Shown: positions 558 through 14,795 of the stretch, in pieces
Numbering within the stretch: the stretch's first letter is position 1
Layout of the letters: every line of letters starts with the position of its first letter
Assembly: GCA_964354495.1 (NCBI GenBank)
Contig: CAYHAA010000008.1
Location: forward strand, 83,054-115,053
Direction of reading: 5' to 3'
Length of the DNA: 32,000 bases
Source: an uncultured archaeon
GTDB lineage: Archaea > Asgardarchaeota > Thorarchaeia > Thorarchaeales > Thorarchaeaceae
Translations under genes and position numbers: made by a program
The notes under the pieces: generated by a model
Database searches by the model: none
The model's input: only the letters and a program-made list of their open reading frames with translations
Told to the model about the DNA's origin: nothing

Positions 558-768
558 ACCGTTCATTGTAAGTTGTACAATCTTGGACACCAGAGCGTTG
601 TACCCCCAAGAAACGGCACTGGGTGGACTCTGCGAGGCCAGGTACGTGTCAGCACAACCTCAGAGTCCTGTCTCCCACGAGTGATATTTAAAGACCTACA
701 AGAATGGTTCACAGAAGTATCTAAGAGATGTCCAACTTTGTCCGAGTTTTCAGCAGCTGTTGCATACC
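558..768 (-). mobile_element. Short non-autonomous insertion element (MITE-like), copy 1, 208 nt plus one GGT repeat; intergenic
   Basis: Ends match 4110-4298 (37/44 and 59/66 nt identical by manual alignment). ACC (GGT on the minus strand) at 558-560 and 766-768. Subterminal inverted repeat at 573-588 / 730-745. Confidence 0.7.
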
Positions 769-991
769 CTACTCTCGATTCGACACGGACTCTCAAATCA
801 CAAGTCGACCCCAGTGTAGTCCTCTGAGCTGACAACACGCAGGTATCAAGTCTGTGCAATACAGAATGAATGATTTAGCCGGTATGTCTTAATAGTATGA
901 CTGTCATTCTGGGATTGACGACCATAAATGTCCGCAAGAACGGATTCGTGCCCCTAGACACAGGTTCAGTGCAATTCGGAGGCTGCTATTC

Positions 992-3245: not shown

Positions 3246-3875
3246 TCAGTCTTGGTTCAAGAATGTCATCACCCTTTCAAGTAGATAACAGGGCGTCTTG
3301 CTCAATGTCTTGCTGACATTCCCCTTCGAGGTCTTTGTAGCCTCTGCAATCTCTGATGTTCGTTTCTTTTCCCATATGTAGTAGTAACAGTGCTGCAGCT
3401 GAGAGGCGCTGAGACCTACAAGTGTCGTGTAAAAGAGGAGAGAATTGACCACTGCATTGTTCTCATCACCTGAGGCCTTCTCATCGACCTTGAAGCCAGC
3501 TGACCTATTCATGTACTTCATGCTCTTTGTTTCATTCAAGGCCTCTCTTGCGTTCCAGAAGGCTGGTCCATCGCACTCATCAGCGCTCTCTTTTCGTATT
3601 ATGATCTCTCCTGTTCCCAGTCCAACACGGAACTCCAGCTCTTCCATCAGAAGCCTATGAAAGAGGAACACAATTGGTTGCCAGCTACTGACCAACAACT
3701 CAATGCTATCGCCCTGAGTTATAGCGGGCATGGCGAGGCAGTAGTCCTTGAAACGTTCGTATGTCTGGCTCAACATGCCGCGCATCTTCTCGTCCACTTT
3801 CCTCCGCTCACGAGCATTGACATCTCTTGATGCTACGATGTCAATAATGACTGCAATCAACGGCTCCTCACCCAA
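3246..3875 (-). CDS. SatD-family protein (nucleotide-cyclase-like palm domain plus C-terminal HTH)
   Basis: IIDIVASR, ITQGDSIELL, FRVGLGTGEI, DGPAFWNAREAL, then HTH-like TSEIAEATKTSKGNVSKTL. TTG start overlaps the upstream gene's stop. Confidence 0.8.
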   Translation of the reverse strand: MGEEPLIAVIIDIVASRDVNARERRKVDEKMRGMLSQTYERFKDYCLAMPAITQGDSIELLVSSWQPIVFLFHRLLMEELEFRVGLGTGEIIIRKESADECDGPAFWNAREALNETKSMKYMNRSAGFKVDEKASGDENNAVVNSLLFYTTLVGLSASQLQHCYYYIWEKKRTSEIAEATKTSKGNVSKTLSKTPCYLLERVMTFLNQD

Positions 3876-4551
3876 CTAGCAGAAATCTAAAGCTGCCCCA
3901 TGTCAACGCCAGCGCCATAGTGATACTCATGAACGTGCCGAGAATATACCAGTCCGCGCACGCACGATCAGTGGTTTCCTTATTCGAGTACCGGAAAATT
4001 GCCTTCCCAGCAACAATGACTGAGAGGAAGCTGAGGATTGTTGTGTATGACAGCGCGCTGTCAAAATATGCTATCAGAATTGCCAGGAATATCAGGCTCC
4101 TCTCCATGTACCGTTCATTGTAAGTTGGACAACCTTGGACGCCGGAGCGTTGTCCTCCCAGAAACGGCACTGGGAAAGAACTCCGCGAGGGCAGGCGTGT
4201 GTCGGAACACTCTCCTCTGTCTGTAGTGGGTCGTAGCATATGAACTCGTACAGCGAAATGTCCAAGTTCGTCCAAGTTTTCAGCAACTGCTGCACACCCC
4301 ATGAGATATCCTCCGTATTGGAGGCCGCCGCACTTAGACGCAATGTCTTCTTCATGCCCTCTTGCCAACCTTCCAAAGACTAGATCAATCAGTAGGCCGG
4401 GCAAGAACAGAGCCAAGAGGTACCCAGAGAGAATTGTGAGGAACTCTGTATTCAGTGAGGGTATCGGAAAGACTACAAGTAGAAACAGAGCAGTACAACT
4501 CACTACTGTCATTAGTAGACCAAGAAGTCGCTGAGACGCCTTCAGAAACAC
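3868..4551 (-). CDS. SatD-partner multi-pass membrane protein (DUF3307-associated C-terminal type), carrying a 62-codon in-frame insertion
   Basis: Hydrophobic N-terminus. Removing 4113-4298 restores GLQYGGYLMG-YMERSLIFLAIL...AGKAIFRY...ADWYILGTFMS, matching the family pattern G-x-x-I-G-x-L-E-R...A-K-S-I-F-R...E-Y-I-L-I-G-T-L (from memory). Confidence 0.8.
   Translation of the reverse strand: MFLKASQRLLGLLMTVVSCTALFLLVVFPIPSLNTEFLTILSGYLLALFLPGLLIDLVFGRLARGHEEDIASKCGGLQYGGYLMGCAAVAENLDELGHFAVRVHMLRPTTDRGECSDTRLPSRSSFPVPFLGGQRSGVQGCPTYNERYMERSLIFLAILIAYFDSALSYTTILSFLSVIVAGKAIFRYSNKETTDRACADWYILGTFMSITMALALTWGSFRFLLVG
4110..4298 (-). mobile_element. Short non-autonomous insertion element (MITE-like), copy 2, 186 nt plus one GGT repeat; intragenic and in-frame
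   Basis: ACC at 4110-4112 and 4296-4298. Inverted repeat TTGGACAACCTTGGAC (4125-4140) / GTCCAAGTTCGTCCAA (4260-4275). Homologous to 558-768. Interrupts a conserved protein motif. Confidence 0.75.
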
Positions 4552-4587: not shown

Positions 4588-4671
4588 ATTATAAGTTTAC
4601 CTTTTTTATTAACAATACACACTGTTTACTATAAAAGTTAACAAACTGACATGTTTACCAATATGGTACAA
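4588..4671 (-). promoter_or_regulatory. TATA-like promoter of the membrane protein-SatD operon plus three tandem GTTTAC-N7-RTWMAM operators
   Basis: Minus strand reads AAAAAAGGTAAACTTATAAT about 40 nt upstream of GTG 4551. GTTTAC occurs at 4595, 4624 and 4653 (29-bp period). Confidence 0.55.
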
Positions 4672-10699: not shown

Positions 10700-12283
10700 C
10701 TACGAATGCATACCAAGCCCAAGTAGCATCTTGCATGTCTTGACTTGATTCTCTATGACCTTCGCCCTATGCAGGTTGTCAAAGAATACCTTGATGTGAG
10801 AGGTATAATTGTCCGACCTCTTGCCGCCATACTCTCCGAATATGTGCCCAGTATTCTCTAGGTCAACAACTCCATAGAGCAGCGAGAGCGACACTATGAG
10901 GTCAACGAGGCCCCTATCTGTTGTTTCCACCACCTGAGGAATCTCATTTGGCGGCTCAAGAATGAAGCACCCTACATTCCCTGCGTTTCTACAGTGGTCT
11001 TCCATCTGCAGGTCGGAAGAGAGCAGGGTGACAGTTGCCTGTTTATCTCTCGCAAACTCGCTTAGCGATTTCACAATGACTCTGTCTGCCTCTTCGGAAT
11101 CATGAGGAAGTGGTTCGCACTTGGCTCTGTCATGAGTCGGCTGCTGCACGAGGAGGTGAAACTGAGAGCTAGCCATCTTGGCAATCCTTGTCTCAAGCGT
11201 GTTCCGATTGTGAAACTCGTCGAAGAAACGCCTCTTGTCAGGACCACTCATGGCTTTCACCGAGCCAATCCAGTCCTGTCCGTATTTGTCTGACACATTC
11301 CGGTCTATCTCTTGCACGACCCCTTCAGATGTGACGAAGAGAAGTTCTCCTCTGCGAATCTGATTGGCCGCCATCAAAGACTCAAGACATGACACAAATC
11401 CACTGTAAAACAGGTTTGAGTCTAATGAGATGTACCATCGCCCCGAAGCGTGTCTGGGGTCGCTCTGTCTCTTGTATCCCTCGACGAAGAACTTGCGGAA
11501 CTCATCGCCTGATCTGTAGTCAATGAGCCCCGCGTAGCAGAGTGAGGCACGTAGTTGTGAGTAACTAGGGTGGTCCCAACCTGTTTCACCACATTCTCTC
11601 AGGTCCTCGGAGTACTTTGCTCTGTCAGTCAGCATGTGGGCTTGTTTCTTAGATAGGTCCAGCTCCATGAGATCCATCTCCATGAGCGGATTCCTGACTT
11701 TCAGTCTGACATGCTCATTGTACCCATAGTTCAGGACGACTGTTAAGAATTCCTTTGACATCTCCAGTCCTTGCCATCTGGTATCAGTCACACGGATTAT
11801 GTCTTTTCTGCACTCTATGTTCTGAGCCAGGTCTCTCAGGAGCTGAATCCTCTTGGGTATCATGAGATAGGGCTTCGCGGCGTCCTCTGTGGACTCGATG
11901 GTCAAATAGTAGATGTGCTTGAGAAACTTGCCTGAGAATCCTAATAGACTACCTGCGACCAGTGCCTTTCTGCCACCAGTGATGTTCAATGCGACTTCGG
12001 AGCCGCTATCTTTGAGACTCTGGATGATACGCTCTATCTCGTCCCGTGTTGCGCGCATATCGAAGTTGGGAACCCTGACCTTCTCTATGTTCCGCTCGCC
12101 ATACTCCTCTTGGATTGTCTTCATGCCCTCAACAACAGGATTGATATCACTCTCATACTGAGCCTCGTACAGGAGGATGATTCTGTCAGGTCTGAAGTCT
12201 GTTTCAAGCATGACTGCATGGTAGGAATTCACGACCCCCCAGCCGCTTCTGCCCATGAGTGTTACGAAGACCTGTTCCGTCAA
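10700..12283 (-). CDS. CARF-domain plus PIN-domain protein (predicted nucleotide-ligand-regulated RNase)
   Basis: N-terminal VFVTLMGRSGWGVVNSY and ALNITGGRKAL are CARF motifs. C-terminal ISLDSNLF, VVQEID, ADRVIV and LLSSD form the PIN acidic tetrad. Confidence 0.75.
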   Translation of the reverse strand: MTEQVFVTLMGRSGWGVVNSYHAVMLETDFRPDRIILLYEAQYESDINPVVEGMKTIQEEYGERNIEKVRVPNFDMRATRDEIERIIQSLKDSGSEVALNITGGRKALVAGSLLGFSGKFLKHIYYLTIESTEDAAKPYLMIPKRIQLLRDLAQNIECRKDIIRVTDTRWQGLEMSKEFLTVVLNYGYNEHVRLKVRNPLMEMDLMELDLSKKQAHMLTDRAKYSEDLRECGETGWDHPSYSQLRASLCYAGLIDYRSGDEFRKFFVEGYKRQSDPRHASGRWYISLDSNLFYSGFVSCLESLMAANQIRRGELLFVTSEGVVQEIDRNVSDKYGQDWIGSVKAMSGPDKRRFFDEFHNRNTLETRIAKMASSQFHLLVQQPTHDRAKCEPLPHDSEEADRVIVKSLSEFARDKQATVTLLSSDLQMEDHCRNAGNVGCFILEPPNEIPQVVETTDRGLVDLIVSLSLLYGVVDLENTGHIFGEYGGKRSDNYTSHIKVFFDNLHRAKVIENQVKTCKMLLGLGMHS

Positions 12284-12352
12284 GTCTCAATCTCCTCCAA
12301 ATTCTTGGTAGGATTCCCAAAGCGTGTACTTGCAGAGGCTGACAACATCAGT

Positions 12353-13855
12353 CTATATCTCCAGAACGTCATCTCTCTTCATGACCATGACTTTTCGATG
12401 CCACTCTTTGAACATCTCGGGATGTTCTGTGTGCATCGGTATCACTATCTCTGGTTTCACTCTCTCAATCAGATCTTTCAACTCACGCCCTGAGAGATGC
12501 CCTGAGCAGTGCTTCATCGCAGGTTCTCCAAGACCAAAGTGTTTCAACCATCTCTTGACCCGCTCGAGTTCTATCGCGCCCTCTTCGTCATAGGGTTCTG
12601 AGGCCGACCAGATGAACTTGCTGCCCTGTTTTGGCTTGAGATCATGAAGGATGCCCAAATCGTAGAAGCTGCATGTCACAACATACTCCTTCTGCGCGCT
12701 CGCCACTTCCTGCGGCGTCACCAGGACAGAGTCTTGAAACACATACTCTCTCACAGGTTCCGGATAGCTGTAGGAGTAATCCCGCAATTGCGCCTCCTCG
12801 TCGTAATCTGAATTCGCCCAGATTCCCCATGACTTTCGAGGGAGCAATACCTCGATGTTCTTCGAGTCAACTGCAGGAATGTCCTTCGTCTGCAGCATCT
12901 TCGAGAGAAAATAGGCCTGCTTGGGGCTGATCAGTAGTTTCCGTCCACTGGCACGAGCAGCGTTACTGATTGTAACCATCCGGCTGATATCTCGTTGGGC
13001 GTAGTTCACAAGGACCAACGCCTTGGAGTCCTCGATCGTATCTGCCATTTCTTTCTCAAGGTTCTTCTCGGTCATGCCAGGCGCATCTTCTGCACGAGTG
13101 CCCTCACAGAGGAGCACTCTCAAGTTGGAATCCTCAAGTGCAGACGCGAACTCCTTTGATGATGAAGCAAAGTACCCATGAAACCTGAGGTCTCCTGTGT
13201 ATGCGACAGCACCGCAGTCTGTGTTCAGAATATAAGCGTCCGCCCCTGGCAGGCTATGGTCGACCTGATACGCTGTCGCCTCGATGTTGCCGACTTTGAA
13301 AGACCTCTTGCGCTGCGTCTTGACAAAGGGACGTTCGATCTTTTCATCTTCAACATCTGTCTTGGTCGCTCTCTTCAGACCCCCGCCCCTCTGTCGGGAC
13401 GTCATCTTGAAGGACGGGTACCAGGTGCAAAACTCCTGTTCATCGCCCGTTATTGTTTCCTGCAGGTACTTCATGATGATCCATGTTGTTTCAGAGCCGA
13501 CCAGCGTAATATCTGGTCGCAGATATGGAACCATGCCGACATGGTCCATATGCGCATGGCTGATCAGGACTGCCTCAACGCTCTTCTTCTTACTAGACGC
13601 TAGGGCGGGATTAGATGAGTTCATGTGTTCGAGATGGTCCTCACGGTAGATTCCCTTGACTGCAGGGAGAAGCCCGAATGAGATGTATTCCTCGATGATG
13701 GCGAAACCTCTAGCCCCAAGAAACTCGTCGTAGTATTTTCTCTGTTGGCCAAAGCTGAGGCCGAAATCGAGGAAGACTCGCGTTCCGCCGTCCTCTATTA
13801 GAATCTTGTTTCCGCCAACCTCATCGACTCCGCCATGAAATACGAACTTGGTCAT
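12353..13855 (-). CDS. MBL/beta-CASP hydrolase (RNase J-related, archaeal type)
   Basis: FHGGVDEVGGNKILI, LDFG, ISHAHMDHVG, VDHSLPGA, YTGDLRFHG, CEGT, HCSGH, IPMHTEH. Start placed at MTKF (13855). Confidence 0.85.
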   Translation of the reverse strand: MTKFVFHGGVDEVGGNKILIEDGGTRVFLDFGLSFGQQRKYYDEFLGARGFAIIEEYISFGLLPAVKGIYREDHLEHMNSSNPALASSKKKSVEAVLISHAHMDHVGMVPYLRPDITLVGSETTWIIMKYLQETITGDEQEFCTWYPSFKMTSRQRGGGLKRATKTDVEDEKIERPFVKTQRKRSFKVGNIEATAYQVDHSLPGADAYILNTDCGAVAYTGDLRFHGYFASSSKEFASALEDSNLRVLLCEGTRAEDAPGMTEKNLEKEMADTIEDSKALVLVNYAQRDISRMVTISNAARASGRKLLISPKQAYFLSKMLQTKDIPAVDSKNIEVLLPRKSWGIWANSDYDEEAQLRDYSYSYPEPVREYVFQDSVLVTPQEVASAQKEYVVTCSFYDLGILHDLKPKQGSKFIWSASEPYDEEGAIELERVKRWLKHFGLGEPAMKHCSGHLSGRELKDLIERVKPEIVIPMHTEHPEMFKEWHRKVMVMKRDDVLEI

Positions 13856-14000
13856 ACTGCAAAGACCACTCTCCAACCAAGAGTGACATACAAGACCGTG
13901 ACCTCCCATATAAGAAGTTCTGGTCGAACAAGACCGCTCTGTAGGAGAGACCTCATATGTGTCCGAAGGACTGCACATGCCCTCACGTCTATCGTTCGAG

Positions 14001-14795
14001 TCAGAGCAGGTCCTTGAGGAAGAGTCGCGTACGTTCAGTGTGCTCGGTCATGACGCTCCGAATGACGATAGGGGAGACAGTGATGTTACCGTTTCGAGAA
14101 ACCTCCCTGGCATCATGACTTTCATCCGAGAACTTCTCCCCGCCACGAATCCAGTAGCATGGCTTTTCGTAGGGATCAAGCCTTTTCTCTAGCTTGTTCC
14201 GTACAACAGCATTACTGGGTTCCACGACCACCAGCCGACTCTGTCCTGAGTATGCCGCGGGGAAGTTCACGTTCAGGCCGTCAACACCAGAGGGCAGCCC
14301 CTGTTTCAGAACATGGCCTATGAGCCGGGCGCTCGTGTGGCATACATGTTCAACTCCCTCACTCACACCGGCTTCAGTGAACCAGTGGACCGGGTCCGCT
14401 AGGTAGGAGAGAGCGACACCTGGGTATCCCTGCAGGGCTGCTTCGAAGATGGCGCCGACTGTGCCGCTCGTGAGCATCCTGTGGTATCCGACATTTGCAC
14501 CCGAGTTTATCCCTGAGACGAACATGTCGATTCTCTTGACCAATGAGAGGGCGATAATCACCGAGTCTGCAGGAAACCCGTCGTGGACTATCATGCGATA
14601 GCTGCCTGTATTCACGTCGCTCACTATCCTGAGAGGCCGACCAAGCGACAGAGCCTTGCTGGCACCACTTCGCTGCTGGTTGGGGACCACCACAGTGAGG
14701 TCCATTTTGGGAGTCAGCGTTTCAGCTAGCCTAAGCAGGCCGATACTGCTTGGGCCATCATCATTTGTTAGGCAGACTGTAGGCATTGGTTCCAC
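14001..14795 (-). CDS. surE: 5'/3'-nucleotidase SurE
   Basis: LTNDDG, VVPNQQRSGAS, HDGFPADSV, SGINSGANVG, SGTVGAIFEA, LNVNFP, ITVSP. Confidence 0.92.
   Translation of the reverse strand: MEPMPTVCLTNDDGPSSIGLLRLAETLTPKMDLTVVVPNQQRSGASKALSLGRPLRIVSDVNTGSYRMIVHDGFPADSVIIALSLVKRIDMFVSGINSGANVGYHRMLTSGTVGAIFEAALQGYPGVALSYLADPVHWFTEAGVSEGVEHVCHTSARLIGHVLKQGLPSGVDGLNVNFPAAYSGQSRLVVVEPSNAVVRNKLEKRLDPYEKPCYWIRGGEKFSDESHDAREVSRNGNITVSPIVIRSVMTEHTERTRLFLKDLL

Follow-up and report, generated by a model that had tools for sequence, protein, structure and literature searches.

A SatD gene with a cyclase-like palm domain and its interrupted membrane partner in an Asgard archaeon: a candidate self-regulated operon

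Two neighbouring minus-strand open reading frames (ORFs) within positions 3246-4551 of a Thorarchaeaceae genome fragment encode a SatD-family protein and a membrane protein split by an inserted repeat element, and the question raised by this locus is what such a pair does. The fragment, referred to here as the window, is a stretch of 32,000 nucleotides from an uncultured archaeon (assembly GCA_964354495.1, contig CAYHAA010000008.1, positions 83,054 to 115,053 of the forward strand). A sequence-only reading had recognised the two genes and had taken them for a signal synthase with a membrane effector acting against phages. Both ORFs are indeed present, and the downstream one is a SatD gene according to Pfam. 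We consider, with a probability of roughly 0.6, that the locus represents the SatD-DUF3307 cassette in its Asgard form, a self-regulating two-gene operon in which the palm domain of SatD serves as a nucleotide or metal switch. The cassette itself is known, though uncharacterised, and the window holds an Asgard variant of it. SatD owes its name to the sat operon of Streptococcus mutans; we know of no work on its biochemistry and of no fold for its membrane partner. Full-text literature searches yielded no relevant paper linking SatD to cyclase, mCpol or DUF3307.

The SatD-family gene (3246-3860, minus strand) starts with TTG at 3860 and encodes 204 aa, with a palm domain at residues 1-146 and a helix-turn-helix (HTH) at residues 144-200. 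The ORF matches Pfam PF16264 with E = 4.7e-16 and 59.5 bits (gathering cut-off 29), which places it in the family. A profile search found SatD as a single copy in the 3.3-Mb genome, and the closest relative found (P0003) is 89% identical. The family comprises 3956 clusters at 50% identity and consists mostly of stand-alone proteins with a length of 200-230 aa. Tandem SatD-SatD duplicates occur as well (P0227, P0234, P0271, P0313), in which each half has its own HTH with clear matches of the LuxR/sigma-r4 type, and other members are fused to TPR repeats (P0282, P0329, P0341, P0324), one of them additionally carrying hexapeptide repeats; no SatD-DUF3307 fusions were found among the top 150 representatives. 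The motifs pointed out in the sequence-only reading are present in the window protein and form the conserved core of the family: the Asp of strand 1, the G-D hairpin, R-x-G-x-G-x-G and DGPAFWNAR are kept in Asgard, methanogen, Firmicutes and spirochaete members. In a comparison of 20 archaeal and bacterial SatDs drawn from these same four groups, D51, G80, G82, D97, G98, F101 and W102 are invariant, and conservation reaches at least 90% at D7, G50, N103 and R105.

The two genes had been described as overlapping by 8 nt, which depends on a non-conserved TTG at 3875, the point reached by the longest SatD ORF. A comparison of 20 Asgard junctions places the start of SatD at MIA(V/A)I, and the equivalent start in the window is the TTG at 3860, which leaves a 7-nt spacer instead of an overlap. 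The junction (3861-3872, minus strand) consists of the TGA of the membrane gene (3868-3870), a Shine-Dalgarno-like sequence GGTGAGGAG (3864-3872), the spacer and the SatD start. Such a Shine-Dalgarno-like purine run spans the membrane-gene stop at Asgard junctions, and the pattern GG(G/A/T)TGA followed after 6-7 nt by ATG, GTG or TTG recurs in most of the 20 orthologous junctions. To judge from this arrangement, SatD and the membrane gene are tightly linked without overlapping, and surely co-transcribed.

Association of the two genes reaches far beyond the window. In Asgard archaea, the membrane gene directly precedes SatD in nearly all loci with sequence upstream of SatD, and the window follows this pattern, its DUF3307-homologous gene being co-oriented with SatD and directly upstream of it. 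The reversed order, with a DUF3307 gene directly after SatD, was found in Methanolapillus, in Streptococcus, in Sphaerochaeta and other spirochaetes and in a metagenome-assembled genome of the Clostridiaceae, as well as on a haloarchaeal plasmid, where RefSeq names the adjacent genes SatD and DUF3307. That the linkage of the pair outlasts the change in gene order is a good argument for a joint function of the two proteins. The presence of SatD is patchy: it occurs in 33 of the 201 Asgard genomes and in 16 of the 43 from the family, and one sample of the window's own genus has it in a single genome out of 14. In another sample, an orthologue of the membrane partner was found in 5 of 24 same-genus genomes, and in all five an intact SatD adjoins it. 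Plasmids contribute very little, as 2 of 72,556 records match, both of them haloarchaeal megaplasmids. Related to the association of the two genes, seven SatD homologues of Methanimicrococcus (L073, L075-L078, L081, L083) all carry the substitutions D7N, S11A and R105G, and none of them adjoins a DUF3307 gene, which is located elsewhere in two of the four Methanimicrococcus genomes searched. Methanolapillus SatD keeps D, S and R at those positions and also keeps its partner. It thus appears that the conserved centre is of importance only in the presence of the partner.

Upstream of the pair lies a promoter with an operator array (4589-4659, minus strand). It is composed of GTTTACY sites at 4595, 4624 and 4653, repeated with an exact period of 29 bp, RTTAAC sites at 4608 and 4637, and a TATA-like TTATAA at 4589-4594. 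Together, the GTTTACY and RTTAAC sites form two 23-nt imperfect palindromes and a half-site that abuts the TTATAA. The same elements are found in the orthologous promoters: GGTAAAC and GTTAACA each occur in 14 of 22 promoters, the window and 21 Asgard orthologues being counted together, and the array layout accompanies the operon across Asgard promoters regardless of the flanking genes. A loose version of the palindrome pattern occurs only once in the 3.3-Mb genome, at the SatD operon. Apart from SatD, no DNA-binding protein is encoded in the operon or travels with the array; a neighbouring PadR gene is not shared among SatD loci. Because SatD is the sole candidate of this kind, we infer that it represses its own operon. 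An HTH combined with a conserved operator array whose palindrome pattern is found once in this genome points to a self-regulating transcription factor.

The structure model of SatD, built by AlphaFold2 (AF2) on 54 aligned homologues from Asgard archaea and Korarchaeota, has a predicted local distance difference test (pLDDT) score of 92.5. In Foldseek, residues 1-146 match the class III adenylyl/guanylyl cyclases Ma1120, Rv1900c, Cya2 and bPAC with a probability of 1.0 and E values of about 2e-4, and further fold matches of this domain (Foldseek, VIA) include GTP cyclohydrolase III, GGDEF and Cas10 palms. SatD thus has a cyclase-homology palm fold, and the suggestion of a cyclase/GGDEF/Cas10-type palm with conserved acidic residues, originally made from motifs, was borne out by structure prediction and fold comparison. 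In cyclases, the two metal-binding Asp residues have their canonical positions at the end of strand 1 and in the hairpin between strands 2 and 3. Judged from the secondary structure of the SatD model, D7 closes strand 1 and G50-D51 occupies that hairpin. The C-terminal HTH is likewise present as proposed. A PDB profile search returned weak matches to Lrs14-like, MJ223 and MarR chains, single family members gave weak Pfam matches to YlxM, sigma70 region 4, ArsR and MarR, and the tandem forms described above carry clear ones.

The likeness of SatD to class III cyclases ends at the fold. Searches of PDB sequences with SatD returned weak HTH matches alone, and the cyclase family PF00211 has no match at E<=10 in the 54 SatD members. 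Direct comparisons gave the same result: aligned by hhalign with 25 spirochaete class III cyclase domains, SatD reached a probability of 2.25%, and in a profile comparison with 11 GGDEF domains 0.4%, neither value being significant and the alignments being out of the expected register in both cases. SatD has neither the GG(D/E)EF signature nor a profile match to GGDEF (PF00990), and the GGDD motif is absent from it. PF00211 has no match at E<=1e-5 in the 81 Asgard genomes searched, nor any in five SatD-bearing genomes. PycC-like cyclases do occur in Asgard archaea despite this absence of PF00211.

The membrane gene of the window (3868-4551, minus strand) is an interrupted relative of DUF3307 genes, with a frame of 227 aa against 163 aa in intact orthologues. 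Where the orthologues have ATG, the window reads CTG (4543-4551), and an in-frame GTG two codons upstream, at 4551, is the sole nearby start. No Pfam, NCBIfam or PADLOC match was obtained for the 227-aa ORF. The PF11750 model likewise has no match at E<=1 for the intact Asgard orthologues and none at the window locus, whereas it recognises the N-terminal part of the bacterial and Methanolapillus partners with 69-73 bits. The model fails on Asgard partners because it covers the N-terminal His/Asp region only, which these proteins do not have. Homology becomes visible in the C-terminal half, where phmmer gives weak matches (8e-6 to 3e-4) between an intact Asgard partner and four bacterial PF11750 proteins. 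A custom hidden Markov model made from those four proteins matches Asgard partners at 1e-11 to 1e-17. The motifs GG.(W/L)IG..ER, AAK..FR and ILGT are common to the Asgard partner and the C-terminal half of DUF3307 proteins. An AF2 model of the partner (pLDDT 77) shows five long helices and a short one, and a fold search with it revealed no meaningful relative.

The 186-nt insert noticed in this gene is real. In the intact orthologues of the same genus (G020, G018 and G019; 163-169 aa), the equivalents of residues 85 and 148 of the window ORF are joined directly, residues 86-147 being skipped. The inserted sequence is a gene-less repeat element (4110-4300, minus strand) of 191 nt according to the boundaries of its repeat family, which were set from six aligned copies, while the net gain relative to the orthologues is 186 nt (4113-4298); the two lengths differ because both ends of the element resemble the target GGATRY. 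It has 29 matching stretches in the genome, whole and partial copies included, and relatives across the genus. It holds no ORF and is not flanked by a target-site duplication, and its conserved end of 65-85 nt is found directly 3' of TnpB zinc-ribbon regions on contigs C1, C17, C24 and C46. Being gene-less, multi-copy, without target duplication and with an end shared with TnpB elements, it is a mini element derived from a TnpB insertion sequence (IS). A second, diverged copy (558-775, plus strand) is intergenic, upstream of a CitMHS transporter gene. One copy of the conserved end on another contig of this genome (L010:1501-1585, on contig C25 of G000) is not next to TnpB but has an N6/N4 DNA methylase gene (1709-2602) at a distance of about 120 nt; the methylase may be cargo of a larger parent element. 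A bulge-helix-bulge intron was also considered for the insert and rejected, as the insert with its flanks folds as RNA no better than shuffled sequences (z -0.94), Rfam has nothing in the window, and the element family is mostly intergenic.

The element splits the multi-transmembrane partner within its most conserved motif, at residue 85/86, just before the invariant E86-R87 and, in the model, at the start of the third long helix. It is in frame with the membrane gene, contains no stop and adds 62 hydrophilic residues. It is conceivable that such an insert has been tolerated or even co-opted, with the membrane protein being made with an extra soluble loop and remaining functional. A stop-free, in-frame insert would have a rough prior of 2-5%, and in the closest other copy (on contig C23, 92% identical) the same frame contains a TGA as well as a 1-nt indel. 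The two close copies are nevertheless too few for the ancestral state of the stop-free frame to be deduced from them. The halves of the gene flanking the insert are undamaged as well, with 81% and 90% identity to G020. Yet the GG.LIG..ER motif, invariant otherwise, is broken at the start of a membrane helix, the conserved ATG has become CTG, and other lineages have plainly lost the membrane gene. On these grounds we find a functional protein with an additional loop unlikely. From its sequence, the interrupted gene is probably inactive, a judgement held with some confidence and well short of certainty.

Put together, these data suggest the following course of events. SatD probably acts as a dimer, like its cyclase-fold relatives, and the tandem SatD-SatD proteins with an HTH in each copy fit such dimeric action. 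The C-terminal HTH would most likely bind the three operators spaced 29 bp apart, and SatD bound to the proximal operator, which abuts the TATA box, would block the transcription of both genes. The centre of the palm, formed by D7, G50-D51, D97-G98, N103 and R105, resembles a metal/nucleotide site and most likely has the role of a switch: a nucleotide would be bound there, and perhaps turned over, altering DNA binding by SatD. The membrane protein could be either the regulated output or a sensing partner. In the window, the gene of this protein is split by a non-autonomous derivative of a TnpB-IS and is probably inactive, while SatD is intact.

Several observations speak against the self-regulated operon in this form. 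An acidic/Asn/Arg centre that is invariant from bacteria to archaea has more the look of a functioning enzyme than of a simple ligand pocket. The partner-less Methanimicrococcus proteins, with D7N and R105G, tie the chemistry of the centre to the partner, which would fit a synthase with its effector equally well. As for the window itself, a protein might still be made from the uninterrupted frame and work, and no damage has accumulated in the membrane gene beyond the insertion.

The first two of these points lead to the possibility that SatD works as a nucleotidyl cyclase and that its product opens or activates the membrane protein, in the manner of abortive infection by Pycsar or by the cyclic oligonucleotide-based antiphage signalling system (CBASS), while the HTH autoregulates the operon or senses DNA. 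Besides the class III cyclase fold with its conserved Asp, Asn and Arg residues and the altered Methanimicrococcus proteins, the patchy, accessory-like distribution of SatD would agree with such a role. However, the PADLOC models, PycC, PycTM and CD-NTase included, match neither SatD nor its partner, and SatD has no profile similarity to cyclases or GGDEF domains. The genomic surroundings are not those of a defence system either. The 130 neighbours of 41 SatD loci proved to be mostly metabolic or housekeeping genes, spread over 175 Pfam families of which none occurs more than 3 times, and PADLOC matches among them were few and generic. In streptococci, the pair follows ylxM and ffh in the ffh operon. 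With such neighbours, no PADLOC match, and an HTH with its own operator array, the antiphage synthase-effector function proposed from sequence remains unsupported.

One locus deserves separate mention in this regard. On Thorarchaeota contig JAFGAR010000070.1 (L059:5394-5912, minus strand), an orphan PycTM-type effector gene (PADLOC 5e-22; Pfam PF18967 above its cut-off) replaces the partner gene and stands head to head with an intact SatD, and a 13-residue remnant of the old partner is still recognisable. No PycC-like cyclase was found within 6 kb of it. True pairs of PycTM followed by PycC exist in other Asgard genomes (L143:1479-2757, L144:1483-2771, L140:723-2028), with PADLOC scores for PycC of 1e-55 to 1e-58 in the controls L143 and L144, and PycTM homologues occur in 8 of 201 genomes. 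The L059 exchange speaks for cyclase signalling, but it concerns 1 of 41 loci, and the PycTM gene lies on the strand opposite to SatD. Taking all of this into account, we regard cyclase signalling through the membrane protein as improbable.

Nucleotide signalling could also be directed at another target in the window. A CRISPR-less cassette of CARF-PIN, RNase J-like and SurE genes (10700-14795) is located 6.8 kb from the pair, and SatD might supply it with a nucleotide signal. In a genome of a different genus (G071; L148:8495-12561, C40), the cassette and the pair are separated by one gene, while all other neighbours differ, so that the distance is 2-7 kb in the two genera. The lack of PF00211 cyclases in the 81 Asgard genomes searched also counts in favour of this reading. 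The presence or absence of the cassette does not, however, track SatD across genomes. CARF-PIN occurs without SatD in G024 (99% complete), G196 and G214, SatD occurs without the cassette in 12 of 16 genomes of the family, and the cassette was found within 6 kb in only 1 of 46 other SatD loci checked, that one (L054) being the G071 locus itself. Considering also that SatD is devoid of GGDD, a link between SatD and CARF-PIN appears very improbable. A broader scheme can be imagined, in which SatD is a DNA-bound cyclase whose product gates an exchangeable effector, mostly of the DUF3307 type and of the PycTM type in one Thorarchaeota lineage, and may feed the nearby CARF-PIN as well, the whole being a Pycsar-like suicide or addiction system with a repeatedly broken effector. 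We hold this scheme to be decidedly speculative and rather remote, but, if true, it would represent an undescribed system spanning from streptococci to Asgard archaea.

The repeated breakage of the membrane gene could also originate in a module resembling toxin-antitoxin systems, where the membrane protein is harmful in excess, SatD acts as its repressor or antidote, addiction keeps the cassette in place, and cells escape by breaking the membrane gene. Four Thorarchaeota lineages have a broken membrane gene and an intact SatD: the window, SMTZ1-45 together with G004, L059 and L070. In SMTZ1-45 (L047:5527-5993) and G004 (L032), a frameshifting deletion of 25 nt removes GGLQYGGY from the membrane protein, about 8 nt from the site of the element insertion in the window; it could mark a hotspot, or be the repair scar of the same kind of element. 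The loci were found via SatD, so that broken SatD genes are under-sampled in this count. An operator abutting the TATA box fits tight autorepression. Furthermore, according to a meta-analysis, satD of Streptococcus pyogenes occurs as an accessory gene in 178 of 249 genomes and yet scores as essential in every transposon screen (PMC11323703). This pattern, which concerns the gene by itself irrespective of its neighbour, is typical of antitoxins and repressors. On the other hand, the two haloarchaeal megaplasmids among all the plasmid records searched do not suggest a typical plasmid addiction module. An addiction-like function is therefore possible in our view, if on the doubtful side.

If the self-regulated operon is the right description, SatD would be a transcription factor on a cyclase fold whose catalytic centre seems intact, an unusual kind of one-component switch. 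Three natural experiments are also on offer in Asgard archaea: a minimal partner reduced to the conserved C-terminal half, several independent inactivations of the partner beside a retained SatD, and one locus where a Pycsar-type effector seems to have taken the partner's place. Along with the accessory-yet-essential satD of S. pyogenes, these variants can help to separate a regulator from an addiction module and from a signalling pair.

Compared with known systems, the locus is closest to the SatD/DUF3307 pair (PF16264, PF11750). The window SatD shares with it the DGPAFWNAR and GD motifs and the C-terminal HTH, while in Asgard archaea the two genes stand in the opposite order, the membrane gene leading, and the window partner differs by its mobile-element interruption. 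In relation to DUF3307 proteins, the Asgard partner is about 100 residues shorter, without the N-terminal His/Asp region, and conserved Cys residues are found in Asgard forms only. The insert resembles non-autonomous derivatives of the TnpB-carrying elements of the IS200/IS605-IS607 groups, an assignment that does not extend to the type of transposase or to a guide RNA. With the class III cyclases Ma1120 of Mycobacterium avium (PDB 4wp9) and Rv1900c of M. tuberculosis (1ybt), and with GTP cyclohydrolase III (MJ0145, 2qv6), SatD has in common the palm fold of strands and helices, the Asp ending strand 1, the Gly-Asp in the strand 2-3 hairpin, and the R-x-G-x-G-x-G strand followed by a helix with Asn and Arg. 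The spacing of the latter residues is N-x-x-x-R in class III cyclases and N-x-R in SatD, which further differs from these enzymes by its fused HTH, its membrane-protein partner and the lack of a PF00211 match. Finally, Pycsar likewise places a small cyclase-fold protein beside a small membrane protein, and at L059 a PycTM gene even occupies the partner's position, whereas SatD is set apart by its HTH and operator array and by a usual context other than a defence island.

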